This document shows positions 5,426 to 19,570 of a stretch of 32,000 bases of DNA, in pieces. The notes below the pieces were generated by a model. That model made no database searches and was not told the origin of the DNA. It saw only the letters and a program-made list of their open reading frames with translations. A program made the translations under genes and the position numbers. Position 1 is the stretch's first letter. Each line of letters starts with the position of its first letter. Source of the stretch: Microcystis aeruginosa NIES-2549 (GTDB lineage Bacteria; Cyanobacteriota; Cyanobacteriia; Cyanobacteriales; Microcystaceae); the NCBI RefSeq assembly GCF_000981785.2, contig NZ_CP011304.1, forward strand, positions 2,190,001 to 2,222,000, in the 5' to 3' direction.

Positions 5426-5971
5426 TTAATCATTAACTATTGACAAATAATCAGATAAAGATTTAATAGTTAGCAAATTTTTGGGAATTAATTGATCTCC
5501 AATTTCTATAGAAAGCTTAGTATATTGGGGTCGTGAATCAGATTGAGAAGGGAGGGAAACGTGATACATAGTCAATCGAAAAAATGGGTCAAAATTAACT
5601 AAGGCAGAAATAGCTCCCTCAGAATGTTGAGAAGCATATTTTTTATTAATTGTATCATCAGTTAAGGAAAAGTAATCAAAACTGCCCGGATGTCTATGCC
5701 ATAGTCCAAGAACTTCTATGGGTTCTCGATAAAATCTGGCAATTTTGTTAGACAGGTGGTTGATATAAGCATTATCATACTCAAAATAGCCGGGGCGAAA
5801 GATAGGATTTAGACCCGAATCTAAGGTTTCTAAAATATACCATTTATTAGGGTTTCTAATTCCTAAAAAAATGCCACCTGTTTCTGTTTTATAGCTTTCA
5901 TAGGTTTCAGCTGCAATAGCTAAAAATGATTTCTGGGAAAAAATAGTTTTGATATTCTGGTAACTTAACAT
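5426..5971 (-). CDS. JAB/MPN (JAMM) metallopeptidase, stand-alone 181 aa
   Basis: It carries a complete JAMM signature. The upstream Glu lies in ETGGIFLG, followed by H-R-H-P-G-S-F-D-Y-F-S-L-T-D (HxHx7Sx2D, nt 5657-5698). It has an ATG start and lies on the same strand as both neighbours. Confidence 0.8.
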   Translation of the reverse strand: MLSYQNIKTIFSQKSFLAIAAETYESYKTETGGIFLGIRNPNKWYILETLDSGLNPIFRPGYFEYDNAYINHLSNKIARFYREPIEVLGLWHRHPGSFDYFSLTDDTINKKYASQHSEGAISALVNFDPFFRLTMYHVSLPSQSDSRPQYTKLSIEIGDQLIPKNLLTIKSLSDYLSIVND

Positions 5972-6069
5972 TGTTTTTATTCTCTTAGTTATTCATCTTT
6001 TTTTCTGTCTAAGATAGATATTTATCAAACATTTATTTTTAATAAAATTTCGTAATATAAATATCTTTT

Positions 6070-6468
6070 TTAGTTACAACTGCGATTAGCTTGTTGAATT
6101 AATCTGTGAATATTAGGTAATTCTGCTTGAGTTAAGCCGTAATATTCGATAGATCGATCATAAGAATAATAAGCTTGTTTAACTTCCTGTTTTTCTCGTT
6201 CTAAGAAATGTTCAACTTGTTGGGAATAGCGTTCAGCCTCTAAAGCATAATCTTTGGCTTTAACCAACTCCTCATTGGTTTTTTCTAAGCCTTGTACCTG
6301 TTTTTGCAAAAATTCTATCATTTTCTGATCGTCATCTTCATGGGGATCAAGATAACGACGGTTAAGAGTTTTGGCAGCCTCATCTTGCCATAGGCCTCGA
6401 ATATCTTTACGATAGTCTTGCAGAGTGCGAGATCGCTGCTGCATCTTCCAAACAATATCTTCCATCAT
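6070..6468 (-). CDS. Small all-helical protein, WXG100-like (W-Q-D-E-A-A motif), 132 aa
   Basis: GLWQDEAAKTLNRRY resembles the WxG-x-A-A-x-x-F turn of the ESAT-6 family. The rest is heptad-like and charged helix. A GGAGGA Shine-Dalgarno lies in the 20-nt gap after the upstream gene. The family call is motif-based only. Confidence 0.5.
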   Translation of the reverse strand: MMEDIVWKMQQRSRTLQDYRKDIRGLWQDEAAKTLNRRYLDPHEDDDQKMIEFLQKQVQGLEKTNEELVKAKDYALEAERYSQQVEHFLEREKQEVKQAYYSYDRSIEYYGLTQAELPNIHRLIQQANRSCN

Positions 6469-6488
6469 TTTTTATCCTCCAAAAATCA

Positions 6489-7490
6489 CTAAAATTGAAA
6501 AGGACGGTTGAATTCAATCAGACTTTCTACTCGATATTCTATTTCTCTTGTTACCCCAATTTCTAAACATTGAGCGGAGTTTCCTTGCTTTTCCGCTCCT
6601 TTGAAATCATTTCGGGCTTCTTCGGTGAAATTGCGGGCATTATTTACGGCTAAAGACATTAAATCTGCCATTTCCTGCTCATTGCTTGCCTCTAATTGCG
6701 CTCTATCAACTTCCCGTCTAGCTGCATTCGCATTTTCTAAACTACGTTCGGCAAAACTCAGGGCATTATGGGCATAATTTAAAGTAATATTCGCCTGATA
6801 GACGGCTTTTTGGGCATATCCGACGGCATTTCGACAACAATTCACCCTAGCTTGCGCTCGTGCGACTTCTTCTCTTGCTGCTTTTTCTTCTTCAATGGCT
6901 TTATTTAAGCGAGCAATCGCAGCCTGAACCTTTTTTTGGGCTTGACTAACCCTAGCTTGCTGACCAGAACAATTGGGCGCATGATATTGTCCATCCTTGT
7001 CAGTATAGCCTGAATTTTGGCAACTGGTAAGGGCGGATTGTGCGCTTTGTAATTCAGATTCTGCACTGCTTAAAATAAATTCTGCTTGCTCTCTTTCGTT
7101 TATGGCAAGTTCTAATCGGGCTTCTGCCCGTCTTAACCAGTCAATTGCAATACCTAACTGATATTCCCAATCATTTAGGGTTGATTGCGCCTGATTTTGG
7201 GTATTTTGAGCTGCTGCCAAATTTTGTTGAGCTTTTTCTAAGACTTGATGACAATTAGATAACAATTGAGCAACTTCATCATTAGCCTGATCAACTAATT
7301 TTTGATCATTTTTAGCCTGATCTTGAATAATTGAAGCATGATACAGAGCTTGACTGACTTTTTCTTCACTTTGCCTTTGATGCCATGACATTTGATCCAG
7401 GGTATCACGGGCGGTTATTTTCCAGTATCTAAGTTCTTCAATTAAGTCATTGAGAAGGTTAATGAGAATACGGGGATCTTGAATAGTCAT
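6489..7490 (-). CDS. Ala/Gln/Glu-rich coiled-coil protein, 333 aa (candidate LXG-like substrate or structural component)
   Basis: Composition is almost uninterrupted helix-forming (QAQSTLNDWEYQLGIAIDWLRRAEARLELAINEREQAEF..., EEEKAAREEVARAQARV...). One central non-helical loop is flanked by Cys (TSCQNSGYTDKDGQYHAPNCSG). It starts 5 nt after the stop of the 81-aa gene. Confidence 0.5.
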   Translation of the reverse strand: MTIQDPRILINLLNDLIEELRYWKITARDTLDQMSWHQRQSEEKVSQALYHASIIQDQAKNDQKLVDQANDEVAQLLSNCHQVLEKAQQNLAAAQNTQNQAQSTLNDWEYQLGIAIDWLRRAEARLELAINEREQAEFILSSAESELQSAQSALTSCQNSGYTDKDGQYHAPNCSGQQARVSQAQKKVQAAIARLNKAIEEEKAAREEVARAQARVNCCRNAVGYAQKAVYQANITLNYAHNALSFAERSLENANAARREVDRAQLEASNEQEMADLMSLAVNNARNFTEEARNDFKGAEKQGNSAQCLEIGVTREIEYRVESLIEFNRPFQF

Positions 7491-7495
7491 AATGA

Positions 7496-7741
7496 TTAAG
7501 ATTTATCGGGGATTTCTTGGATAAAATTGAGGATTTTCTGAACTTCTAGCCTTGAATCTTCCATTTCTGCCAAGGTTCTTGTCCAAAAACCTGTAAATTC
7601 TTCGGCGGCTGATCCTTGAAAAACTTCATCAAGCGATCGCCATGCCGTATCGAGAAATTCCAATTCTTCGCTTAAAATCAAATAATATTGATTGAGTGCA
7701 GTTTGATAGGCTAAAAGGGCTGTTTTTCGGGAATTATCCAC
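7496..7741 (-). CDS. WXG100-like helical hairpin protein (F-Q-G variant), 81 aa
   Basis: Two ~35-aa helices are joined at VFQGSAAEEFTGFW, compared with the W-x-G-x-A-A-x-x-F consensus. It starts at GTG and overlaps the preceding gene by 8 nt (GTGGATAA). Confidence 0.55.
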   Translation of the reverse strand: MDNSRKTALLAYQTALNQYYLILSEELEFLDTAWRSLDEVFQGSAAEEFTGFWTRTLAEMEDSRLEVQKILNFIQEIPDKS

Positions 7742-8000
7742 CGTTTAAATACCTCTCTAATACTTGTAACTTATGGTTTAAAAAATCATTATAGGTGGGA
7801 ATTTGGCGACTATAATAATTATTAGTCTTTTCTTGCAAATCAAGCCACATTTCGTCATGTTTTTGTCGTTTTTGGTCTTGCCAATGGGGAGAAAGATCCT
7901 CATAGGTGGTTTCCACTTCTCGCCACGCCGATTGAACGCGATCATGGAATTGTTCGAGGGTCTGTTGAAAGTGTTTGAGTTGTAAAAATGAGTCATCCAT
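7734..8000 (-). CDS. WXG100-like helical hairpin protein (W-Q-D variant), 88 aa
   Basis: The predicted helix - turn (LSPHWQDQKRQKHDEMW, mid-protein) - helix has a size and layout typical of the ESAT-6 family. It lies 14 nt downstream of the FtsK-like ATPase stop. Confidence 0.55.
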   Translation of the reverse strand: MDDSFLQLKHFQQTLEQFHDRVQSAWREVETTYEDLSPHWQDQKRQKHDEMWLDLQEKTNNYYSRQIPTYNDFLNHKLQVLERYLNGG

Positions 8001-8014
8001 GGTTAAATTAAGCT

Positions 8015-10891
8015 TTAAGCTCTTTTGATCAAACTATTAGCAATTTTCTCTATTTGTTGCTTAAATTCGGGGGTAGATTCCGTACTATAAGGTTTAAAAA
8101 GAGTAGTGCGATCGCTATCCGTATCCCGATAAAGGGCTTTAATTGGAACATCTCCATCTGCTTGTAAACGTGAGGCTTGGCGATCACTAACAAAGGTGAA
8201 AGAATCATCTTCTGACATCTGTAAAGCGACTCTATGGCGAAAATAAGCTAAATTTCGCCGAATATCAAGGACATTAGAGAAAGCTTTGATCCCTGAAAAA
8301 CTGAGGATGAGATGAATACCTTTACTCGGTCCTTCCTTCAATAATCGCTTAATTTGAGTAGTTAAGTGACTTTCTGGGCTATAAGACTGCTCATTGCTCC
8401 GTCTTAAGTCATCTACTCTATCTAATTCCGTCATGATGACGAAAATAGAAGGTTGAGTCATCAAGTCTGCTTCACTGAGTTGGTTTCTTTCGTCAAGTTG
8501 AACAATTAAATTGTTCAAAATTGCCGTAATAATTCTATTTTCGCGGTTAAATGCCGTCGTAAAGCCCAAAGGTTTTAGAATAATCTGACATACTTCTTCC
8601 AATGCTAAATGCCATTGTGTACCGGATACACTGCGATCTACCACAACAAAACGAGATTGTTGAAGATTGCCATTAATAGCAAGACTGGTCAAAATAGCTG
8701 ATAGAATTCCATAACGGGCTGTATTATAGTCTCCACCGATAACTAGAACGTTTTCACTTGGACGACGGCGTAATATCAGCCTTGCCTGTTGCCTCACACT
8801 GAATTCTTGTCCTAGCCATGTTAAGACCGGGTATTCTGCACTAAACCAGTCAGAAATGCCTAATCCTCCTTTGTAGAAAGGTAAACGGGCGATTTTTTCC
8901 CAATCTTCTGAGGTTAACCATTTACCGTAATCTAAAATATGGCGTAATTGAGGATTATCTGCTAAATTAGGCTGAGAATCTCCATCAAAGACCACTGTTT
9001 CCGTGTAATCTTCTGGGGAGAGTTGATGAGCTTTTTGAGATAAAGCGTTAATGATCATATCTCGGCGAGATTTTTCGATAAATGCCACTTTCCCAAAATA
9101 ATTAGAGTTATCATCGCCACTACGGTCATTAATAACAATTTTCCCCGGCAAATCACAGGTCATTAATAATTGTTTTCCTCGTTTTCCAAATTCTGTCAGG
9201 GCTTGAATTTCTGTTTTTGACATCTGCATTCCCATTCTCAGGTGAATATTACCCAAAATTCCCGTTTGATTCCGCATTCCTTCAGCCCCAAACCTTTGGG
9301 AAGCGAGTAACATATGAATACCCGCACTCCGCCCCTGTTGGGCTAAAATCAGTAGTTGACTGGAAGCAGTATCCTCTTTGTCGTTAAAAAATAACTCCTG
9401 ATATTCATCAATAATTAGAAGAATACGGGGCATTTTGCCCTCTGGTTGTCCTAGTCGGCGATAACCTGCCAATTCTGACACCCCTAATCTTTTAAATAAG
9501 GCGTTACGTCGTTCTTTTTCGGCGATTAATTCAGTTAAAACACTACGCGATAATTCAGGGGAGGAATGTAAGGAAACTACTTCGGTATGGGGCAAATTGC
9601 GATAGGGGGCTAATTCTACGCCATATTTGCCATCAATGAGATAAAATCTTAATTCTGAGGGACTATAACGAGTTGCCAAGCCTAAAATAAGCCCATGATA
9701 CAGGGTAGATTTTCCTGATCCAGTCATTGCTCCTAGCATACCATGAGCGCATTGATGACCTTCGCTATCTTTACCAAACCAAATATTTAATTGATCAGAA
9801 CTTCCTCTTCCACCGATAGGTGTGGTTATCCATTCTTCACTGCTATAATTCCACCAATTTTGCGGATCAATTCCTACTATATCATCCCAATCTAATTTTC
9901 GTTCGGGGGGTTTAGCTTGTTTAACTTTATCAAGTAATTGTTTTTGTAAATCTGCGTCAGGAATACTATCCGCTTTAAATTGAAGTTGACAAGATGTTGC
10001 TGTCTTTGACTGTTGACTGAGATCAATATAAAAGGCATTTTCAAACCCACTCATATTAATATCTCTAGGGAGATCAATATCTTGATTATAGTGAATAAAC
10101 ACATATCTTCCAGCTTCTGGTCCACTATTACCAATTTTTTGTAATTCTTCAATATCTCTACGGTCATATCTTTTAGGAAAATCTGCGACAAAAATCCCCT
10201 CAAATCTTTCATTGACTCGAATATCTGGGGGGAGTAAATGTAAGGCAGGAGACTGAGGATCTAAATAGGTTTCTTTGACGCGACGAATATCTTGGGTGAC
10301 TTCTAATAAATCTCGATAAACTTCGCCACTATTTTCTCTAATCAAAGCCTCAGGAAGGGAACGACGCATTAAAAATGCACCCCCATTATTAACGGGATCA
10401 CAGAAGGTATAACGTATTTGATAAGGAAGTAAAATAGCGGTACGAATCACAAGAGATTGCAGTAATTCTAGCCCCATATTACGGGTATTATTGCTACAGC
10501 GAATAATAATAGTTTTATTCCCACCAATAAAGGGAGCAAATTCGGGAACACAAAAAGTGTTATTACTCGATCTTTGTTCAACTAATTGACCAATACGAAT
10601 TAATTCTGTATGCTCTAATGAGGATAATAAATTATCGTTAATGTTCCAATTTTCCCAACGATAATCTTGCCAACTTCCTATTATTTCTAATGGTTGCTGT
10701 TCTAAATAAGATTGAGTCGATAGATAGCTATCTTGGAGAAATTTTCCAAAATAATTAGGTAATTGTTCGCCGTTTAATTTACCATGATTGAACAAAGAAG
10801 CACAAAACCCTAAATAGTCGGTTATGCGTTGACTACTTTGTTCAATTTTTTGGTTTAACCCTTCAATTTGTTGTTGCCAAAACATAAGCAT
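8015..10891 (-). CDS. FtsK/SpoIIIE-family ATPase with three tandem P-loop-like modules (EssC/EccC-like), soluble, 958 aa
   Basis: The middle module has Walker A GAMTGSGKST (nt 9704-9733), Walker B LLIIDEYQEL (nt 9392-9421) and GRSAGIHMLLASQR. The N-terminal module is degenerate (NKTIIIRCSNNTRNMG, GIFVADFPKRYD). The C-terminal module is also degenerate (VLVIGGDYNTARYG, IFVIMTELDRVDD, GPSKGIHLILSFSG). No hydrophobic TM segment is present. Confidence 0.85.
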   Translation of the reverse strand: MLMFWQQQIEGLNQKIEQSSQRITDYLGFCASLFNHGKLNGEQLPNYFGKFLQDSYLSTQSYLEQQPLEIIGSWQDYRWENWNINDNLLSSLEHTELIRIGQLVEQRSSNNTFCVPEFAPFIGGNKTIIIRCSNNTRNMGLELLQSLVIRTAILLPYQIRYTFCDPVNNGGAFLMRRSLPEALIRENSGEVYRDLLEVTQDIRRVKETYLDPQSPALHLLPPDIRVNERFEGIFVADFPKRYDRRDIEELQKIGNSGPEAGRYVFIHYNQDIDLPRDINMSGFENAFYIDLSQQSKTATSCQLQFKADSIPDADLQKQLLDKVKQAKPPERKLDWDDIVGIDPQNWWNYSSEEWITTPIGGRGSSDQLNIWFGKDSEGHQCAHGMLGAMTGSGKSTLYHGLILGLATRYSPSELRFYLIDGKYGVELAPYRNLPHTEVVSLHSSPELSRSVLTELIAEKERRNALFKRLGVSELAGYRRLGQPEGKMPRILLIIDEYQELFFNDKEDTASSQLLILAQQGRSAGIHMLLASQRFGAEGMRNQTGILGNIHLRMGMQMSKTEIQALTEFGKRGKQLLMTCDLPGKIVINDRSGDDNSNYFGKVAFIEKSRRDMIINALSQKAHQLSPEDYTETVVFDGDSQPNLADNPQLRHILDYGKWLTSEDWEKIARLPFYKGGLGISDWFSAEYPVLTWLGQEFSVRQQARLILRRRPSENVLVIGGDYNTARYGILSAILTSLAINGNLQQSRFVVVDRSVSGTQWHLALEEVCQIILKPLGFTTAFNRENRIITAILNNLIVQLDERNQLSEADLMTQPSIFVIMTELDRVDDLRRSNEQSYSPESHLTTQIKRLLKEGPSKGIHLILSFSGIKAFSNVLDIRRNLAYFRHRVALQMSEDDSFTFVSDRQASRLQADGDVPIKALYRDTDSDRTTLFKPYSTESTPEFKQQIEKIANSLIKRA

Positions 10892-11352
10892 TATTCTCCT
10901 TGTTTAGATAATTTTAAAACATTTTTTTGAGTATTTAACTGATACAGTTGAGAAGAATTAGAGTCATCAGAGGAGTTATTGTTAGTAAAGATAAATAAAG
11001 TGAACAACAAGAAAGAACCCCCCACACTCAGCCCAATGATTAGCCCGATGATTAGGTTACGAGCTTTAATTTTTAAAGACTCTATCTCATTTTTATGAGA
11101 TTCTATATTAGACTGTTCTTGGTTAATTTTACGGTCTGTTTCTTCTAATTTATCCAGACAAGCTTCAATTTCAGCCGGGGGTAATTGTTGAGAAGTTAAA
11201 GGGGAAATAGTCGTAACTTGACTTGGATTACTATAATATTTAGCAAAGCGTTTACTTAGGTCTTTTCGATTAGAATCAGCCCGATCATATTGTTGCCAAA
11301 TTTGCTCTCTATTAGCAATCATACGAGCAATTGAATTTTGAATTGTTTTCAT
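10891..11352 (-). CDS. Single-pass membrane protein with an N-terminal coiled coil, 153 aa (candidate membrane anchor for the ATPase)
   Basis: It has one hydrophobic helix (LIIGLIIGLSVGGSFLLFTLFIF) preceded by a charged heptad region (KINQEQSNIESHKNEIESLKIKA). Its stop overlaps the ATPase start as TAATG, with AAGGAG embedded in its last codons. Confidence 0.7.
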   Translation of the reverse strand: MKTIQNSIARMIANREQIWQQYDRADSNRKDLSKRFAKYYSNPSQVTTISPLTSQQLPPAEIEACLDKLEETDRKINQEQSNIESHKNEIESLKIKARNLIIGLIIGLSVGGSFLLFTLFIFTNNNSSDDSNSSQLYQLNTQKNVLKLSKQGE

Positions 11353-11377: not shown

Positions 11378-11740
11378 TTAATCAACGAGTTGAGGAATAG
11401 ATAAATCACAGTCATGTAACCACATGGTTGTGCGTGAGGGTTGATAGAAAACTTGCCAAATTTTATCACCTCTATTATTGGTGTTAATAACACCTGTTAA
11501 TGAGACGACTTGATCAACAATTAAATAACTTCCACGAGTCCCCTTTCTTGCGTCATAAACCCTGCCATCTTGTCGAATAAAATGATTGCTACAATATCCA
11601 CTCCGATGAGGTTTAACAATAGCTACCACATTACGATAGTTATTTTCTTGATGACGACGCCATGTTTGAGCGTTTACTGGTAAGACTAAGCTGGTTAAAC
11701 TGACAAGACAGGTGATAACAAATAAATGAGTAATTTTCAT
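11378..11740 (-). CDS. Small secreted/periplasmic protein with a Sec signal peptide, 120 aa
   Basis: The N-terminus MKITHLFVITCLVSLTSLVLPVNA-QT has an AxA-like cleavage site. It lies 25 nt upstream of the membrane-anchor gene on the same strand. Confidence 0.6.
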   Translation of the reverse strand: MKITHLFVITCLVSLTSLVLPVNAQTWRRHQENNYRNVVAIVKPHRSGYCSNHFIRQDGRVYDARKGTRGSYLIVDQVVSLTGVINTNNRGDKIWQVFYQPSRTTMWLHDCDLSIPQLVD

Positions 11741-11796: not shown

Positions 11797-12276
11797 TTAA
11801 TGACAATACGTCTGATTCCAATTAGCAGTTAAATTACTACCAGAAGGAATACAATCCCGTAGGCGAGTTTTTCCATCAGATTGAATAGCAAACTCTGGTC
11901 CCCACTCTGTCTGATCAATACCGAAAATTACAACGGCAATATCTTGACAATTAGATACGATTCTATCGGCATAACTTTTCATTAAAACACCAGAAGCTAT
12001 AATGTTTGAAACAATCCTATAACTTCTTGTATCAAGAGATGTATAGCTTTCATTATAAGGGCTTAATGCGAAAATGATTTCATCTTTTCTATTAGTGGGA
12101 TTTCTCCTATTAGTTACAGTCCTTTTTGTAAGTATCACCCTTCTAACTCCTTTAGATTCTATTTCATTGACAATAGAATTAATGGTTGCTTGACAGCGAG
12201 ATTGAGCTTTAAGTGGTAAGCTAAACCCTAGCTGACTCAGTATCAAAATGAATAAAATGAAGTTAATTTTTTTCAT
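11797..12276 (-). CDS. Small secreted/periplasmic protein with a Sec signal peptide and 4 Cys, about 159 aa
   Basis: The track ORF starts at TTG 12285. ATG at 12276 gives MKKINFILFILILSQLGFSLPLKA-QS. The mature part has four Cys (possibly two disulfides). It is the first gene of the co-directional block. Confidence 0.6.
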   Translation of the reverse strand: MKKINFILFILILSQLGFSLPLKAQSRCQATINSIVNEIESKGVRRVILTKRTVTNRRNPTNRKDEIIFALSPYNESYTSLDTRSYRIVSNIIASGVLMKSYADRIVSNCQDIAVVIFGIDQTEWGPEFAIQSDGKTRLRDCIPSGSNLTANWNQTYCH

Positions 12277-12480
12277 GATTTTCAATTCGCAAGATGGTCA
12301 ATTGCTGAAAACATTACTTACTGTTAAGCTTGACTAATTCTTGGTGAATACTAAAAACTAGAATCAATGATTCACAGAAAATTCGCAAGACTACATAACA
12401 GATAGTTAAATGCTAGGGAGGATTAAAACAGTCCAGTTAACCCCTCTAGCATAATCAGAAAAAAAACAACAAACTGTTTA

Positions 12481-12936
12481 TCAAATATCTGCAATAAGTT
12501 GATTTAATTCATTAATCATTTTCTTTGCTTCTGTTCCTTCCCAAGGAACATGAGAATATGCTACAACTCCACCTCCAGTTGAACCAACAGCAATGACGGT
12601 CTGAAAAGCACTAATGATATTGGCAACTCCAAGTAGAAGTAATGGGAATCCAAATGATCTAATAGCACTAAAACCAACTAAGAGAAGGATTACGCCAACA
12701 CATAGAGGCAAGAACTTGAACTCAGTTCTAGTTTTAATACCTGCTATGCTTCTTAATGGATATGTTACTTCATCTTGGCCTATAGGGATAAATAGGAGAA
12801 CATTGGGTTTTCTGGCGATTAGTCTCTTGTTAGTTAACCAAAAACCTGATTTTAGAAAGAAAAGTATCAAGGAATAGCTAAACTCATACTCCTTCTGAAC
12901 TGACTCATCTTTTCCTAATGGGGTGTCAAATTGCAT
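12481..12936 (-). CDS. Small membrane protein, function unknown (possible PH-like N-terminal part)
   Basis: It has an ATG start and two hydrophobic helices (FLPLCVGVILLLVGFSAI, FPLLLLGVANIISAFQTVIAV). The segment WLTNKRLIARKPN...YPLRSIAGIK resembles bacterial PH-like membrane proteins, but only weakly. Confidence 0.45.
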   Translation of the reverse strand: MQFDTPLGKDESVQKEYEFSYSLILFFLKSGFWLTNKRLIARKPNVLLFIPIGQDEVTYPLRSIAGIKTRTEFKFLPLCVGVILLLVGFSAIRSFGFPLLLLGVANIISAFQTVIAVGSTGGGVVAYSHVPWEGTEAKKMINELNQLIADI

Positions 12937-14739: not shown

Positions 14740-16239
14740 ATGAAGTTAAAACTCTCCGTAGCGGGACTTGAGCAAGTCAAAACCCGATGGGCGCAAAAAC
14801 AAAAAGAAGGCTGGACTAGAGAGCATTTATGCACAGAAGCTAGTCAATTTGCTGAACCTGATACCAATTGGGAGGAATTGTTCAATCTCCGACGTTACGC
14901 TTTGAATTGCACCCCAGAGACTTTAGATCGATTTTTAAGGAGGGAAAACATTCGATTAGGAGGTTTTGTTTCCTTTTGTCGAGCTTTGAACATCGACCCT
15001 TCAAAAGTCGCAGATCTAGATAATCTTTTGCAAAAACTGACTCAAGATATCGAGCCTATTTGGGTGGGGCGAGAGTCTCTTCAAAGTGATTTACTGGAAA
15101 AACTAAGAGGCGATTGTCGCATTGTCGTAATTACAGGAATAACAGGTATTGGGAAAACTGCCCTCGCCTACAAATTAGCCTTAGCTTTGTGTCAAGAAGG
15201 GTTTCCTCCTGAACTGCCTATTGATTTTGATGGGTTTAATCAACGGGAGGATCAACAGTCGCAATCAGAAGCACAAAACTTTATCAGCACAGCTATTGAT
15301 TTACTCAATCGTGGCGATGAACCTGTTACGGCAAAACAAGCAAAAAACCCAGAACAATTATTAACTCAACTGGTTAATCATCTGAGCAATAATCGTCGAT
15401 TGATTTGGTTTGATTCAATGGAAAATCTTTTACAAGGAGAACAACAAGATGGTAGTAATCGCTTTAAAGACCCCCTCTGGCGAGTCTTTTTTCAAAAAAT
15501 ATTAGAAGCCGAAGATTGTCAGACTCGAATTGTGATAACTTCGCAGGATAAGCCTGAAGATTTTGAAACTTTTAGTCAAGCTCAATATTGGCATATTCAG
15601 CCATTAATGGGATTAGAGGATCAGGAAAGTTTACAGTTATTTGAACGTTTATTTCAACAAGCAGAAGTCGAATTAATTCTTCATGGACGTAACCTTGCTT
15701 ACCTTAAAGAGATCGGAAAACTTTATGAAGGACATCCTCTCGCTATCCGCTTAATTTCTGGTGATATTATTGATAGACTGAATGGAGATATAAGCACTTA
15801 TTATGAGGAGAATAAATCCCGATTTCGACGATTAAGAGAAATGATTGATGAAGCTCAAAAAGCCAATCCTGATGATTATTACAAAGTTAACTTAATGACC
15901 AAACAATTACGAAAACAACTGCTAGAGGAGGAAATCAAAAAAACAATAGAGCGGCTTGAAAACACTTTTAAAACTGCTTATTTATTGCTTATCTATGGCT
16001 CCACTTATTCATCTTTTGAATTTAAAAATGCGTGGTTTCAAAATCTTCAATTATTTTCAGAATACGAGGAACAGGATTTAGACTTAGCTCTTTTTACCTT
16101 GTTTAACCGTTATTTAGTAGAAACTCAAAAACAACCGGGATATGAACCACATATCAAACAGCACAGCTTAATTCGCAATGTTGCTTTCAAGCATCTAGTA
16201 TCTACCCAAACAAAAGAAGGAAACCCAAATCATGAATGA
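14740..16239 (+). CDS. STAND NTPase (NB-ARC-like P-loop) with an N-terminal HTH-like domain, 499 aa
   Basis: Walker A is ITGITGIGKTALAYKLA and Walker B is RRLIWFDSMENL. The N-terminal ~95 aa (LSVAGLEQVKTRWAQKQKEGWTREHL...TLDRFLRRENIRLGGFVSFCRALNIDPSKV) match the pattern seen at the N-terminus of many cyanobacterial WD40/TPR/NACHT proteins, from memory. Confidence 0.8.
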   Translation: MKLKLSVAGLEQVKTRWAQKQKEGWTREHLCTEASQFAEPDTNWEELFNLRRYALNCTPETLDRFLRRENIRLGGFVSFCRALNIDPSKVADLDNLLQKLTQDIEPIWVGRESLQSDLLEKLRGDCRIVVITGITGIGKTALAYKLALALCQEGFPPELPIDFDGFNQREDQQSQSEAQNFISTAIDLLNRGDEPVTAKQAKNPEQLLTQLVNHLSNNRRLIWFDSMENLLQGEQQDGSNRFKDPLWRVFFQKILEAEDCQTRIVITSQDKPEDFETFSQAQYWHIQPLMGLEDQESLQLFERLFQQAEVELILHGRNLAYLKEIGKLYEGHPLAIRLISGDIIDRLNGDISTYYEENKSRFRRLREMIDEAQKANPDDYYKVNLMTKQLRKQLLEEEIKKTIERLENTFKTAYLLLIYGSTYSSFEFKNAWFQNLQLFSEYEEQDLDLALFTLFNRYLVETQKQPGYEPHIKQHSLIRNVAFKHLVSTQTKEGNPNHE

Positions 16240-17554
16240 TTTTCAATCTCCTCAATTAAGAGTCAAAGAACGTCTCACAAGTATCGATTTTACTGTTTTT
16301 GGAGAACTCGCTCAAGTCAAACAAAAAGGGGAAATTTTAGGGGCGACAGGGAGTCATTTTGAAAAAGCACATTTTGGCGCATTTATCTGGCATTTAATTG
16401 GTTATGAACGCCATATTAAGGATAAAATGGGACAGCAGCTCTCTATTCAAGAACGGGCAAGCCGTTATGTGGAAGCATTTCTCTGTCTGTGTCGATTAGG
16501 TTGGTACAAAGAAGCTAAATCTTTATTTTCTTTACCCTTAGAAATTCATGATCCAACTTCTTTACCTTTGCACAAACAATTACGCATCTGGGGACGGTAT
16601 GAAGATGGCATAAAACTGTGTAAAGAATTATTAGGAAATCTTGACAATGAAACCGATTTTATCTGTTTAAGTGAACTCGGTTATATGTATCGAGAATTAG
16701 GACAATTTGACCAAGCAAAAAATTATACGGAGAAACTCTTATCCTTAGCCGAGCAATTAAATAATCCTCTTTGGAAAGCAAGAGGAAAAGGAAATATAGC
16801 CACAATTGATGGAATAAAAGGGGAATATTTAAGCGCTGAAATAGGACTGAATGAAGTTTTAAATCTAGCCGAGATTATTCCCGATTGTGACGAAAAATTT
16901 GAGATTATTAATGTTGCCCATTCAAATCTGGGTAATTGTTATGTTTATCAGGGAAAAGTTGACCAGACTATTCCTTGTTTAGAAAAATACTTAAAATGGG
17001 CAGAAAAAATTAAAAATCTTATTTATCAAGCAACGGCTTTACGAAATTTAGGAGAAGCACACCGGCGAATCAATGATTTGAATACAGCTATCGATTATAC
17101 TCAAAGAAGTCTTGATTTATCTGAGCAAATAACCGATGAAGCAGGAATTATTTTTTCTTTGGGAAATTTAGCCGCAATTTATTGGCAACAAGCAAATTTT
17201 CAGGAGTCTGAAAAATACTTTAAACAACAAAAGAAAAGAGCTTTAGCTATTTCAGATGTGGCAGGTGTTGCCCATGCTTGCGCTGGATTAGGAGAAATTT
17301 ATAGTATCACTCGAAAGGATGATCTAGCCTATCAATATCTTAATCAAGCTTTAGATATTGCCCTCGATATTGGAGAACGATATGTAGAACTAGAGACTTT
17401 AATTGTTTTGGCAGAATTTGAAGAAAAAACCCATGATCTTAAATCAGCTATTAATCACTGGCAACGCGCCTTACATCTTTCTGAAAAATTAAATATGCTC
17501 TCCCATAAAGAGAACTGTGAACAAAACCTAGAAAGGTTGTTAAACCCCAACTAA
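16232..17554 (+). CDS. Tetratricopeptide-repeat (TPR) protein, 440 aa, translationally coupled to the NB-ARC gene
   Basis: TPR-like units recur (ALRNLGEAHRRINDLNTAIDYTQRSLDLSEQI, SLGNLAAIYWQQANFQESEKYF, CAGLGEIYSITRKDDLAYQYLNQALDIA). Its start overlaps the upstream stop as ATGAATGA. Confidence 0.85.
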   Translation: MNDFQSPQLRVKERLTSIDFTVFGELAQVKQKGEILGATGSHFEKAHFGAFIWHLIGYERHIKDKMGQQLSIQERASRYVEAFLCLCRLGWYKEAKSLFSLPLEIHDPTSLPLHKQLRIWGRYEDGIKLCKELLGNLDNETDFICLSELGYMYRELGQFDQAKNYTEKLLSLAEQLNNPLWKARGKGNIATIDGIKGEYLSAEIGLNEVLNLAEIIPDCDEKFEIINVAHSNLGNCYVYQGKVDQTIPCLEKYLKWAEKIKNLIYQATALRNLGEAHRRINDLNTAIDYTQRSLDLSEQITDEAGIIFSLGNLAAIYWQQANFQESEKYFKQQKKRALAISDVAGVAHACAGLGEIYSITRKDDLAYQYLNQALDIALDIGERYVELETLIVLAEFEEKTHDLKSAINHWQRALHLSEKLNMLSHKENCEQNLERLLNPN

Positions 17555-18821: not shown

Positions 18822-19241
18822 ATGCCAGCAAAAGACCTCTATCACGAAGCCGTTAAAAATGCCTTAATTAAAGACGGCTGGACAATTACGGCTGATCCTT
18901 ATCCTATTGAATATGAAGACGCTGAATTGTATCCAGACCTGGCGATCGAGAAATATATTTCCGAAGAACAAAGACAACGTAAAATTATCATTGAAATTAA
19001 AAGCTTTCTTGGCCCTTCAATGATCAAAGACTTTGAAATGGCTTTGGGACAATATATTTTTTATCGTGATCTCATTCAATTAGGACAAGATGAATACCAA
19101 GAAATCTATCTGGCTATTAAAGATGAAATTTATGAGACTTTTTTCCAACGAAAATCTATTCAAGCCGTTATTAAAAGACACCAATTAGATTTATTAGTTG
19201 TCAACATCGAAAAAGAGGAGATTGTCCAATGGATAAACTAA
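18822..19241 (+). CDS. xisH: XisH family protein (fdxN-element excision controlling factor homolog)
   Basis: The N-terminus MPAKDLYHEAVKNALIKDGWTITADPY is the hallmark XisH opening. GAAGGAGG lies upstream, and a TATAAT sits at 18786-18791. Confidence 0.9.
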   Translation: MPAKDLYHEAVKNALIKDGWTITADPYPIEYEDAELYPDLAIEKYISEEQRQRKIIIEIKSFLGPSMIKDFEMALGQYIFYRDLIQLGQDEYQEIYLAIKDEIYETFFQRKSIQAVIKRHQLDLLVVNIEKEEIVQWIN

Positions 19242-19570
19242 CTAACTATCGCCAAATTATTCAAAATACCTTAACAAAGCTAGACACAATTGCGAATAGC
19301 TCATCCAAAAAAAAACTAGAAACCTGTTTAATTTTTGATGAAAATCATGATCATTATCTATGGATGTCTATTGGTTGGATAAACAAAAAGAAAATCAACA
19401 ATATTCAGATTCATATTCGTATTAAAAATGAAAGAGTTTATATTGAACAAGATTGGACAGAAATAGGAATCACCTCTCAATTATTAGAAGCAGGGATTCC
19501 CAAAGAAGATATTGTTTTAGCATTTCATGATCCTGCAAGTCGTAAATTAACAGAATTTGCTATTGCTTAA
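19229..19570 (+). CDS. xisI: XisI family protein
   Basis: MDKLTNYRQIIQNTLTKL... has the typical XisI size. It overlaps xisH by 13 nt, the usual xisHI pair arrangement. Confidence 0.9.
   Translation: MDKLTNYRQIIQNTLTKLDTIANSSSKKKLETCLIFDENHDHYLWMSIGWINKKKINNIQIHIRIKNERVYIEQDWTEIGITSQLLEAGIPKEDIVLAFHDPASRKLTEFAIA

Follow-up and report, generated by a model that had tools for sequence, protein, structure and literature searches.

A six-gene cassette in Microcystis aeruginosa represents a reduced and divergent form of the type VII secretion core with a predicted tail-anchored ATPase partner

Cassettes that combine a soluble EssC-like ATPase with WXG100 proteins are known from the computational work of Bell et al. 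2024 (PMC11090510), where Anantharaman et al. 2012 is cited for similar cassettes. The passages of Bell et al. devoted to them place such cassettes inside CoCoNuT restriction operons, liken their last small protein to an HU-binding DNA mimic, and argue from the missing transmembrane (TM) domains for a mechanism unlike classical secretion; EssC itself is stated there to retain Walker A and B motifs in D1 and D2. For "other bacterial lineages", WXG toxins of the T7SS type are listed by Zhang et al. 2012 (PMC3482391). The LXG/EsaD toxins of T7SSb have EsaG and YezG as their immunity proteins (PMC3482391). Our literature searches found no experimental study of such cassettes. An earlier reading of the present locus from its letters alone (the sequence-only reading) knew of no functional characterization of such a system in cyanobacteria, which stands for experiments but needs qualifying in view of the computational descriptions.

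The window analyzed here is a stretch of 32,000 nucleotides from M. aeruginosa NIES-2549. Six closely packed minus-strand genes occupy positions 6070-11352 and are followed after 98 nt by a JAB gene (Table 1). The 153-aa and 958-aa genes overlap by 1 nt (TAATG) and the 88-aa and 81-aa genes by 8 nt (GTGGATAA), while gaps of 14, 5, and 20 nt separate the 958-aa from the 88-aa gene, the 81-aa from the 333-aa gene, and the 333-aa from the 132-aa gene, respectively. All seven ORFs and their junctions lie where the sequence-only reading had put them. They are real genes rather than chance ORFs: homologues recur among 88 related loci, many of which are truncated contigs (79 loci for the 88-aa protein, 72 for the 81-aa, 65 for the 333-aa, 62 for the 132-aa, and 48 for the 153-aa). 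The six-gene cassette recurs in Cyanobacteria, Chloroflexi, Acidobacteria, and Deinococcus. The genes stand in the same order in Anaerolineales, Blastocatellia, and other cyanobacteria, on a Deinococcus plasmid, and in dozens of loci from metagenomes, so the neighborhood is conserved across phyla; no further recurring gene family was found beside it. We conclude that 6070-11352 is one six-gene cassette, related to the type VII secretion core but divergent from it and minimal in content.

Table 1. Coordinates of the cassette genes, the adjoining JAB gene, and protein features within the window.
Feature	Position	Strand	Basis
Predicted tail-anchored membrane partner, 153 aa	10891..11352	-	ORF, family alignment A6
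Single TM helix of 153-aa protein, residues 100-122, LIIGLIIGLSVGGSFLLFTLFIF	10987..11055	-	sequence, A6 hydrophobic block
EccC/EssC-like FtsK/SpoIIIE ATPase, 958 aa	8015..10891	-	Pfam, NCBIfam, PDB, Foldseek
ATPase N-terminal long helix, residues 2-65	10697..10888	-	AlphaFold model
ATPase module 1, ~residues 97-310, degenerate alpha/beta, no Walker motifs	9962..10603	-	secondary structure of model
ATPase module 2, ~residues 350-560, sole one with catalytic motifs	9212..9844	-	Pfam, A1
Walker A GAMTGSGKS, residues 387-395 (G387-S395)	9707-9733	-	ATPase module 2
Walker B, residues 491-496, ending D495-E496	9404-9421	-	ATPase module 2
ATPase module 3, ~residues 689-935, degenerate alpha/beta	8087..8827	-	model, Foldseek
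WXG100-superfamily protein A, 88 aa	7734..8000	-	family profile A2, orthologue scans
WXG100-superfamily protein B, 81 aa, GTG start	7496..7741	-	profile A3, orthologue scans
Coiled-coil carrier protein, 333 aa, cargo-less form	6489..7490	-	alignment A5
Helical protein, 132 aa, third carrier family	6070..6468	-	AlphaFold, relatives' fusions
JAB, 181 aa	5426..5971	-	ORF

The ATPase matches Pfam FtsK_SpoIIIE at residues 380-535 (9.7e-31). NCBIfam models rank EccCa (115.7 bits, 2.7e-33), EssC (104 bits, 4.1e-30), and EccCb (93 bits, 1.2e-26) far above FtsK (45 bits, 2.4e-12) and TraB (20 bits, 1.5e-4). Its top PDB sequence match is T. curvata EccC (4nh0, 2e-35), and the top Foldseek match of its model is three-domain EccC (D1-D3; 2.5e-28, ~1000 columns). 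These searches agree in grouping the protein with EccC/EssC rather than with FtsK or conjugative TraB, in line with the sequence-only reading. There are at least 969 homologues at E ≤ 1e-5 (8000 candidates scored), and the best 120 are mostly full-length at ~50% identity.

Three P-loop-fold modules make up the ATPase, with Walker A and B kept in the central module only, where G387, T390, G391, G393, K394, S395, D495, and E496 do not vary across the 22 homologues of alignment A1. Only the AlphaFold model and its Foldseek match to three-domain EccC reveal modules 1 and 3, as alpha/beta modules. The module 1 region is family-specific (413 representative clusters) and finds no sequence match among solved structures, and sequence searches with module 3 give no match. 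The earlier description of three P-loop-like modules is therefore correct for the fold but overstated for the motifs, because one alone is intact; just one of the three is predicted to be able to hydrolyze ATP. By analogy with D3 of EccC, module 3 is a candidate substrate-docking module.

Taken alone, the 88-aa and 81-aa proteins of the window match WXG100 with E values of 0.029 and 0.052, each below the Pfam threshold. The 88-aa family profile (A2) retrieves the H. pylori WXG100-like protein HP0062 (9.9e-6), followed by EsxA, EsxH, and EsxR, and 21 of 39 orthologues match PF06013 (best 3e-6). The 81-aa profile (A3) retrieves ESAT-6-like MAB_3112 (4.4e-4), HP0062 (8.7e-4), and EsxB (1.1e-3); among its 38 orthologues, 32 match PF06013 (best 1.3e-8) and two match T7SS_signal. 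An invariant W40 lies inside a W-Q-D turn (7875-7883) of the 88-aa protein, and the 81-aa protein, which is shorter than its family by ~13 C-terminal residues, has an F-Q-G turn (7613-7621) followed by A..F. Profile evidence thus places both proteins, which are paralogues of each other, in the WXG100 superfamily at family level. The sequence-only reading had proposed comparing all four small proteins with the WXG100 and LXG families; the 333-aa protein has no LXG and no other Pfam match, and the 132-aa protein has no Pfam family and no fold match.

The N-terminal part of the 153-aa protein is helical and contains an ER..W..D motif; a PP.E motif and a coiled coil are also present, and the C-terminal end has one TM helix with a short tail. 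This hydrophobic helix is present in 25 of 26 members (A6), the remaining row being cut off before it, and what had been called a single-pass membrane protein is here refined to a predicted tail-anchored one. After profile iteration the family was found in 58 loci, its gene lying either upstream of the ATPase gene or after the 132-aa gene. The family HMM also matches the N-terminus of five ATPase homologues (best 2.7e-16), which are gene fusions. Extensions of >200 aa at the N-terminus occur in the ATPase family; N-terminal hydrophobic segments were seen in 12 of 35 long forms, whereas just 7 of 183 forms of normal length have such a segment at any position. From the fusions we infer that the N-terminal helix of the ATPase may be where the tail-anchored partner docks. 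A fusion with a single TM segment would leave either its N-terminal domain or its ATPase on the wrong membrane face, except where that segment is a hairpin. Both the tail anchor and its fusion to the ATPase N-terminus in some relatives go beyond the first reading.

The 333-aa protein has an alanine every seven residues (115-150, 184-212) and conserved cysteines, and its family shares a core of ~330 aa ending in ..R320...L324..NRP. Beyond this core, other loci carry variable C-terminal extensions of 0-300 aa (alignment A5), one of which is a GNAT domain (L054). The 132-aa protein is modeled (pLDDT 88.8) as helices 2-27, 30-40, and 44-131, the last of them 88 residues long, and W27-x-D29 forms a turn (6382-6390); W27, D29, and P42 are invariant in the family. 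Relatives of all three carrier families (WXG, coiled-coil, and 132-aa) bear swappable C-terminal domains, with GNAT fusions on each of the three. AHH sits on a WXG-like N-terminal domain in L018 (8.4e-15), L021, and L030, and GIY-YIG occupies its slot in the sister locus L020. Endonuclea_NS_2 is found on a WXG-like N-terminal domain in L065 (1.6e-27) and fused to a 132-aa-family relative in L069 (4.4e-25), both times with a YezG-like immunity gene behind it. In L056 and L057, the gene after the long coiled-coil form encodes an HD_4 hydrolase. No adjacent immunity gene was seen for several AHH-bearing carriers, whose contigs are short there, and the window copy has no toxin domain and no immunity gene. 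Interchangeable cargo accompanied by immunity genes is likewise new relative to the first reading and follows the logic of LXG/EsaD toxins in T7SSb.

How does the cassette compare with known systems? Like T7SSb (Ess/Yuk, Bacillota), it has an EssC-type FtsK/SpoIIIE ATPase gene adjoining WXG100 genes, and its relatives have helical N-terminal carriers with swappable C-terminal toxins (AHH, Endonuclea_NS_2, GIY-YIG, GNAT), YezG-like genes by both Endonuclea_NS_2 cargoes, and some 81-aa orthologues matching YwqH-like and T7SS_signal models. Unlike T7SSb, its ATPase has one catalytic module and neither FHA domains nor TM helices (by sequence and AlphaFold model), its long carrier has no LXG (PF04740) match by sequence, its membrane component is a single protein with a predicted tail anchor, EsaA, EssA, EssB, and EsaB/YukD are missing, and its hosts belong mostly to diderm phyla. 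ESX (T7SSa, Actinomycetota) provides the top ATPase sequence and fold matches (T. curvata EccC, EccC5) and the precedent of a WXG100 paralogue pair directly downstream of the ATPase (esxB-esxA). However, the cassette lacks EccB, EccD, EccE, MycP, and PE/PPE, its ATPase is soluble with modules 1 and 3 degenerate, and its turn motifs are W-x-D and F/Y-x-G, not W-x-G. The sequence-only reading had anticipated an ATPase without FHA or TM region and the absence of EccB/D/E, EssB, and EsaA.

Compared by description rather than sequence against sequence, the cassette of Bell et al. (PMC11090510) likewise has a soluble EssC-like ATPase with an N-terminal coiled coil and three ATPase-like domains, the central alone predicted active, a pair of WXG100 proteins of which one keeps the canonical motif and the other lacks it, and the same gene order of a coiled-coil protein and then a small protein. 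The window differs in that its coiled-coil protein has no nuclease domain, its ATPase N-terminal helix is just ~65 aa, and flanking VWA or CoCoNuT genes are absent. A tail-anchored partner, toxin-immunity swapping, and ATPase fusions are not mentioned in the passages of Bell et al. on these cassettes.

With a probability of roughly 0.55, we favor a putative ATPase-driven, membrane-tethered machine for the export or delivery of helical carrier proteins. The ATPase would form a hexamer, by analogy with FtsK-family proteins, and the tail-anchored protein would tether it to the cytoplasmic membrane, probably via the ATPase N-terminal helix. The two WXG100 proteins would pair as a heterodimer of hairpins; bundled with the coiled-coil and 132-aa proteins, this dimer would make up a rod-like substrate that the ATPase recognizes. 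ATP hydrolysis in module 2 would then push this assembly into or across the inner membrane, and any carrier-attached toxin domain would travel along. The Microcystis copy carries neither toxin domain nor immunity gene, so what it exports would be the helical proteins themselves. Several features count against export: the ATPase has no TM helix of its own, it has a single intact module compared with Walker A/B in D1 and D2 of EssC (PMC11090510), the WXG100 scores of the window proteins are sub-threshold, the topology of single-TM fusions is awkward, and several AHH-bearing carriers, on short contigs, show no adjoining immunity gene. So does the gene content, in which no translocation channel is evident; searches turned up no polytopic membrane protein recurring with the cassette, no counterpart of EccD, EccB, EsaA, or EssB, and no linked outer-membrane component, though most hosts are diderm.

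The missing TM helix and the lack of a linked channel protein would suit the main rival, an intracellular abortive-infection machine whose ATPase remains cytoplasmic or peripheral to the membrane and from which nothing is secreted. After phage attack, the ATPase would use WXG100-type recognition to unfold carriers or strip off inhibitors, and the producing cell would be exposed from within to toxins of the nuclease or GNAT type or to membrane-active helical proteins. This would accord with the CoCoNuT-embedded cassettes of Bell et al. and their argument for a mechanism unlike classical secretion (PMC11090510), with a match of the ATPase to the FtsK-like part of the PADLOC SspH model, and with the neighbors of some copies: STAND NTPases, an MmeI-type enzyme, and JAB in the window, a serine recombinase and an AAA_16 STAND gene in Anaerolineales, and IS elements on the Deinococcus plasmid. 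Yet Endonuclea_NS_2/YezG and AHH are families of T7SSb interbacterial antagonism (PMC3482391), and the membrane anchor is conserved and at times fused to the ATPase, which a purely cytoplasmic machine would not obviously need. No PADLOC model recognizes the cassette as a system. Some copies occupy housekeeping contexts, including another cyanobacterial one, and the defense-island setting proposed by the sequence-only reading is a trait of the window genome rather than of the cassette; the absence of copies from viral contigs we count as neutral. We consider intracellular action possible, albeit unlikely.

Far less probable is a seven-gene system in which JAB acts as a MycP-like processing protease or as partner of a ubiquitin-like component, a role the sequence-only reading had entertained. 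JAB homologues occur in just 10 of the 88 loci, all from Microcystis, and are absent from other cyanobacterial copies. A STAND-WD40 gene, likewise confined to Microcystis loci, follows JAB wherever the locus is long enough to show it, and in the 99%-identical Microcystis locus L010 an Hsp70 gene replaces both. Although JAB lies close by on the same strand, has an intact JAMM motif (HxHx7SxxD), and matches Prok-JAB (1.4e-6), no YukD/EsaB ubiquitin-like gene is present, and its best named relatives are Cap3-type and Cap2-type defense JAB domains. This distribution largely refutes the seven-gene reading: JAB and STAND-WD40 are neighbors outside the cassette. We give least credence to a DNA translocase or conjugative coupling protein (FtsK, Streptomyces TraB, TcpA-like) with the small proteins as DNA-binding accessories. 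FtsK and TraB reach 45 and 20 bits versus 116 and 104 for EccC/EssC, in the fold search the FtsK motor aligns with just a single ATPase module, the invariant partners are WXG100 proteins, and there is no relaxase, T4SS, or FtsK gamma domain. The reading draws on the FtsK_SpoIIIE domain, source annotations naming homologues "DNA translocase FtsK", the DNA-mimic likeness in Bell et al., and the one copy on a plasmid, which is however typed non-mobilizable.

A Helicobacter plasmid locus is another diderm example of the same logic as the cassette. Its ATPase is distant (32% identity over 30% of the query), and its gene order and partners differ, the neighboring genes being annotated as hypothetical proteins. 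On the plasmid, this related ATPase adjoins an 89-aa protein, an HNH endonuclease, and an SMI1/KNR4 immunity-type protein. Helicobacter is also the source of HP0062, the solved structure that the 88-aa family profile matches best.

As shown in the table, six minus-strand genes of the window form a compact cassette, followed by a gene for a JAB/MPN peptidase. Successive cassette genes are spaced by -1, 14, -8, 5 and 20 nt, with 98 nt leading to the JAB gene, and the overlap sequences TAATG and GTGGATAA at cassette junctions were both found in the window. Thus, the ORF listing and junction sequences reproduced the seven minus-strand ORFs and packed junctions described in a sequence-only reading of this DNA. 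Loci in M. aeruginosa assemblies were 95-96% identical to the window over the ATPase region. Promoter and terminator scans of the locus returned counts not above chance, and its Rfam and tRNA scans gave no matches. As judged by sequence comparison, the locus is a real, conserved variant of the core found in type VII secretion systems (T7SSs). The overall interpretation as a minimal T7SS-like module held for the ATPase, the WXG100 families and conservation, but not for the JAB gene or for three P-loops by motif.

Coordinates and strands of the cassette genes and neighboring features within the window
Feature	Positions	Strand	Source
153-aa protein	10891-11352	minus	ORF listing
958-aa ATPase	8015-10891	minus	ORF listing
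88-aa WXG-A	7734-8000	minus	ORF listing
81-aa WXG-B, GTG start	7496-7741	minus	ORF listing
333-aa coiled-coil protein	6489-7490	minus	ORF listing
132-aa protein	6070-6468	minus	ORF listing
181-aa JAB protein	5426-5971	minus	ORF listing
STAND-WD40 NTPase, 1251 aa	1581-5336	minus	
120-aa protein	11378-11740	minus	
162-aa protein	11797-12285	minus	
151-aa membrane protein	12481-12936	minus	
STAND NTPase	14740-16239	plus	
TPR-repeat protein	16232-17554	plus	
XisH-XisI pair	18822-19570	plus	
MmeI-type enzyme	20186-22885	plus	

The ATPase contains one FtsK_SpoIIIE domain at residues 380-535 (Pfam, 9.7e-31). NCBIfam models of T7SS proteins scored it at 115.7 bits for EccCa (2.7e-33), 104.2 for EssC (4.1e-30) and 93.1 for EccCb (1.2e-26), versus 45.4 bits for the DNA translocase FtsK (2.4e-12) and 20.5 for plasmid TraB (1.5e-4). 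All of these scores were far under the equivalog cut-offs, and the protein is therefore a distant relative. Its top solved relatives by sequence in the PDB were T. curvata EccC (2e-35), EccC5 and B. subtilis YukB, with FtsK behind them at about 1e-13. The AlphaFold model (pLDDT 73.8) consists of a long N-terminal helix (residues 2-65), amphipathic in the model, and three alpha/beta modules, which we number 1 to 3 from the N-terminus. Foldseek placed the three-domain cytoplasmic EccC (D1-D3) first (2.5e-28, about 1000 columns) and EccC and EssC D2-D3 structures next, while the FtsK motor aligned over only about 300 columns. Profile scores and fold search thereby upheld the proposed grouping with EccC/EssC rather than with FtsK or conjugative proteins.

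In module 2, the Walker A residues G387..G393-K394-S395 and the Walker B residues D495-E496 were invariant across 22 homologues. Neither motif was present in modules 1 and 3 of this alignment, in which the family consensus shows S..... and GG.N.ARYG where a P-loop would be. Accordingly, the description of three P-loop-like modules survives by fold only, since by motif the Walker pair belongs to module 2 alone. Sequence searches with modules 1 and 3 against the PDB had no matches, and the counterpart of module 1 may be EccC D1 or the DUF domain. No hydrophobic segment, TM helix or FHA domain was found in the sequence or the AlphaFold model, as had been proposed. Given the EccC/EssC-first matches, the single Walker pair and the lack of TM and FHA regions, the ATPase is predicted to be a soluble, single-motor EccC/EssC-like protein, albeit a distant one.

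WXG100 proteins are helix-turn-helix hairpins of about 100 aa with W-x-G in the turn. At 88 and 81 aa, the two small window proteins are of a suitable length. Directly 3' of the ATPase gene are the genes for WXG-A and WXG-B, whose families are paralogues of each other. Both window proteins by themselves fell under the PF06013 cut-off of 27.3 bits, with WXG-A at 15.1 bits (E 0.029) and WXG-B at 14.3 (E 0.052). We gathered orthologues from related loci into family alignments, in which 21 of 39 WXG-A members (best 3e-6) and 32 of 38 WXG-B members (best 1.3e-8) matched PF06013. Against solved structures, the WXG-A family profile matched H. pylori HP0062 (9.9e-6), then EsxA, EsxH and EsxR, and that of WXG-B matched the ESAT-6-like MAB_3112 (4.4e-4), then HP0062 and EsxB. 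Membership is therefore a property of the families and not of the two window sequences alone, and the suggestion that the 88-aa and 81-aa proteins are WXG100-like stood only at that level. On the evidence of these profiles, WXG-A and WXG-B are families of the WXG100 superfamily encoded next to the ATPase. The turn of WXG-A (W40-Q-D) keeps the Trp and has no Gly, and that of WXG-B (F41-Q-G43) keeps the Gly and has no Trp; the WXG-B family form is [FY]-x-G..A..F, with A..F conserved. Microcystis WXG-B is about 13 residues shorter at its C-terminus than almost all relatives and is without the conserved ERI..L....NR tail. The C-terminal region is the usual site of targeting signals in T7SS substrates.

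Members of the coiled-coil family share a core of about 330 aa that has Ala at each seventh residue and several conserved Cys, and that closes with ..NRP. The Microcystis protein stops at the core end, while relatives carry unrelated C-terminal extensions (0-300 aa across the family alignment, and 100-300 aa in extended forms). LXG (PF04740) matched neither the window protein nor 10 long relatives, and Pfam returned no significant domains on the extensions of 10 long coiled-coil proteins; the ParB-like GRHR, REase-like D-ExK and RelA/SpoT-like motifs that we see there are guesses. By analogy, the family may be called LXG-like in its working, combining a helical N-terminal core with variable C-terminal domains, a likeness of layout in which homology is no part of the claim. 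Within residues 108-235 of the 333-aa protein, two arms (115-150 and 184-212) have Ala spaced exactly 7 residues apart; a Cys-containing segment lies between the arms, and an R-V-x-C-C motif comes after them at 215-220. The pattern is suggestive of an Ala-zipper hairpin with antiparallel arms and a cluster of Cys, which may bind metal or form a disulfide.

In the AlphaFold model of the 132-aa protein (pLDDT 88.8), the chain turns at the invariant W27-x-D29 between a first helix and a second one of 88 residues; Foldseek found no fold match and Pfam no family match. We rejected WXG100 membership of the 132-aa family because hhalign against the 88-aa family gave a probability of 3.9% and a PDB profile search found only tropomyosin-like coiled coils. 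Its W-x-D turn is one hint of a link, and an HMM match that is weak (0.017) is the only other. Iterated profiles merged the 132-aa and 333-aa families through weak matches at many positions, as coiled-coil composition predicts, and they were therefore treated as separate families. Database profile searches found at least 9 proteins of the 333-aa family and at least 14 of the 132-aa family.

Of the candidates scored, at least 969 were homologues of the ATPase (E <= 1e-5), and most of the top 120 are full-length with about 50% identity. The family-specific N-terminal third was found in at least 413 representative clusters (E <= 1e-3, clustered at 50% identity). Across 88 loci, the recurring order was ATPase, WXG-A, WXG-B, coiled-coil protein and 132-aa protein, with the 153-aa homologue upstream in some loci, Microcystis among them, and behind the 132-aa gene in others. 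Hosts include Anaerolineales, Blastocatellia and Picosynechococcus sp. NKBG042902. All six genes are present on a plasmid of Deinococcus actinosclerus SJTR, annotated as 'hypothetical' or 'FtsK', and a further cyanobacterial assembly has the cassette among housekeeping genes. The gene set is thus a conserved neighborhood in Cyanobacteria, Chloroflexi, Acidobacteria and Deinococcota, as anticipated. No seventh gene family recurred in the 76 non-Microcystis loci, where the largest extra clusters were antisense shadow ORFs, and no relatives of the cassette were found on viral contigs. The JAB and STAND-WD40 genes occurred in 10 of the 88 loci, all from Microcystis, and a 99%-identical Microcystis locus (L010) has an Hsp70 gene in their place. 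JAB is therefore a neighbor and not the component that it had been taken for.

Related loci exchange cargo domains. A WXG-like N-terminal domain is joined to an AHH nuclease in L018 (8.4e-15), L021 and L030, with GIY-YIG in the same slot of a sister locus (L020), and to Endonuclea_NS_2 in L065 (1.6e-27), where a YezG-like immunity gene is next. The 132-aa family is likewise fused to Endonuclea_NS_2 in L069 (4.4e-25), again beside a YezG-like gene. GNAT domains were found on all three carrier families, in one case as an extension of the coiled-coil protein. The long coiled-coil form is followed by an HD_4 hydrolase gene in L056 and L057 and by a YbjN-like gene in L044. No cargo domain, immunity gene or extra carrier copy was found in the window. 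Going by these domain matches, the cargo layout is a polymorphic-toxin architecture with T7SSb-type toxin and immunity families. T7SSb toxin/immunity pairs of Bacillota include EsaD/YeeF with EsaG/YezG. T7SS-type WXG/LXG toxins have been listed in 'other bacterial lineages' (Zhang et al. 2012, PMC3482391).

Two further loci are of interest in this regard. The coiled-coil protein of L056 and L057 (546 aa) has a C-terminal extension that is RelA/SpoT-synthetase-like by eye, which no model confirms; with the small HD_4 hydrolase, it resembles a toxic alarmone synthetase and its hydrolase antitoxin. In a plasmid locus of Helicobacter sp. NHP19-012 (L090, 2440-6842), the gene for a distantly related FtsK/SpoIIIE ATPase is preceded by those for an 89-aa protein, for an HNH endonuclease and for SMI1/KNR4, a protein of SUKH immunity type. 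The locus is a second diderm T7SS-like toxin module and probably a relative of the one that encodes HP0062.

The 153-aa family is tail-anchored, and its HMM matched the N-termini of five ATPase-family representatives (best 2.7e-16), which are fusions. N-terminal hydrophobic segments were present in 12 of 35 long ATPase forms, and 7 of 183 normal-length forms had a hydrophobic segment anywhere. The fusion argues for cooperation between the two proteins and for action of the ATPase at the membrane.

The cassette shares with T7SSs generally an EccC/EssC-clade multi-module ATPase beside WXG100 genes, and with T7SSb the toxin and immunity families of its relatives (EsaD/YeeF with EsaG/YezG type). 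It differs in that the ATPase is without its own N-terminal TM helices, there being a separate tail-anchored protein, and in having Walker motifs in one module rather than several of D1-D3. Neither EccB/D/E and MycP of T7SSa nor EsaA, EssA, EssB and EsaB of T7SSb had a Pfam or NCBIfam match among the cassette genes, consistent with the previously noted lack of EccB/D/E, EssB and EsaA.

Relevant passages of Bell et al. 2024 (PMC11090510) describe a similar cassette, in which a soluble EssC-like ATPase whose central domain alone is active is accompanied by a pair of WXG100 proteins, a nuclease with a coiled coil and one further small protein; they cite Anantharaman et al. 2012 for a stand-alone, mobile form of the cassette. 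Compared by description, that cassette and ours share a soluble three-domain ATPase with an active central domain and N-terminal coiled coil, and the succession of two WXG100 proteins, a coiled-coil protein and a small protein. Unlike the CoCoNuT form in these passages, the 333-aa protein has no D-ExK restriction-endonuclease-like domain, ending at the core, and the window has no VWA or McrB-like genes; the window copy is therefore the 'stand-alone' form. In the same passages we found no description of three features: the tail-anchored partner and its ATPase fusion, the cargo on three carrier families together with immunity of YezG type, and JAB's exclusion. Garrett et al. 2024 added subtypes T7SSc-j, in Gram-positive bacteria only. 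Literature searches found no experimental study of the cassette, such that the claim of no known functional characterization holds for experiments, although a computational description exists in those passages of Bell et al.

With homology, conservation, cargo swapping and fusion observed, the best-supported reading, to which we assign a probability of roughly 0.55, is that a membrane-tethered EssC-like ATPase would drive a carrier bundle into or across the inner membrane. We infer that the ATPase would form a hexamer, tethered to the membrane, and would recognize a complex in the form of a helical bundle that unites the WXG pair with both longer carriers. The bundle would then be pushed into or across the inner membrane along with whatever toxin is attached to it. 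The main rival, an intracellular defense machine, is favored by the solubility of the ATPase, the absence of a channel protein from the cassette and the CoCoNuT association in passages of Bell et al. 2024, and we hold it to be possible but on balance unlikely.

We also considered a non-secretory cassette in which a membrane-tethered intracellular 'toxin-arming' machine reuses the T7SS ATPase-WXG100 recognition pair, a speculative idea that we judge improbable. Here, phage attack or another trigger would cause the single-motor ATPase to unfold the helical carriers or strip their inhibitors, so that cargo of nuclease or GNAT type, or helical proteins that act on membranes, would be set free inside the producer. 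If true, it would constitute a new abortive-infection class and a non-secretory role for T7SS parts. A system that includes JAB is very improbable given the restriction of this gene to Microcystis. Least probable of all is DNA translocation by an FtsK or conjugative coupling protein, against which stand the FtsK (45 bits) and TraB (20 bits) scores relative to EccCa (116 bits); no relaxase or T4SS genes were found in the window.

Type VII secretion is regarded as belonging to Actinomycetota and Bacillota, while the same ATPase-WXG100 core and toxin-immunity logic occur here in Cyanobacteria, Chloroflexi, Acidobacteria and Deinococcota. The only membrane part of the cassette is the tail-anchored protein. 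Were the cassette to export proteins, no known T7SS-like machine would be smaller; it would work in diderms and would be relevant to the open question of how the T7SS channel is made. Otherwise, it would represent a second, intracellular use of T7SS parts. For bloom-forming Microcystis, the cassette would be a further candidate for a role in conflict with phages or between cells.

The surroundings of the cassette contain several other features. JAB has an intact JAMM motif (HxHx7SxxD), and among named relatives the best are defense JAB domains of the Cap3 and Cap2 types. The STAND-WD40 NTPase, with about 13 WD40 repeats, is behind JAB in every Microcystis locus long enough, and the two may be a separate conflict module. 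Just upstream of the cassette, the 120-aa and 162-aa proteins have signal-peptide-like N-termini; Microcystis loci are the only ones in which they stand beside it, and neither matched any family. The match of the 151-aa membrane protein to the transmembrane region of exosortase EpsH (3.4e-5) falls just short of the threshold, at 23.8 bits versus a cut-off of 25.7. On the strand opposite the cassette, a STAND NTPase with nSTAND3/NACHT/NB-ARC matches overlaps the TPR-repeat protein, and together (14740-17554) the two resemble a STAND sensor that is split into a pair. The XisH and XisI genes also overlap (5e-55 and 2e-42). The MmeI-type enzyme is complete, with N-terminal, helicase-spacer, methyltransferase and TRD domains, and is type IIL restriction-modification or BREX PglX-like.
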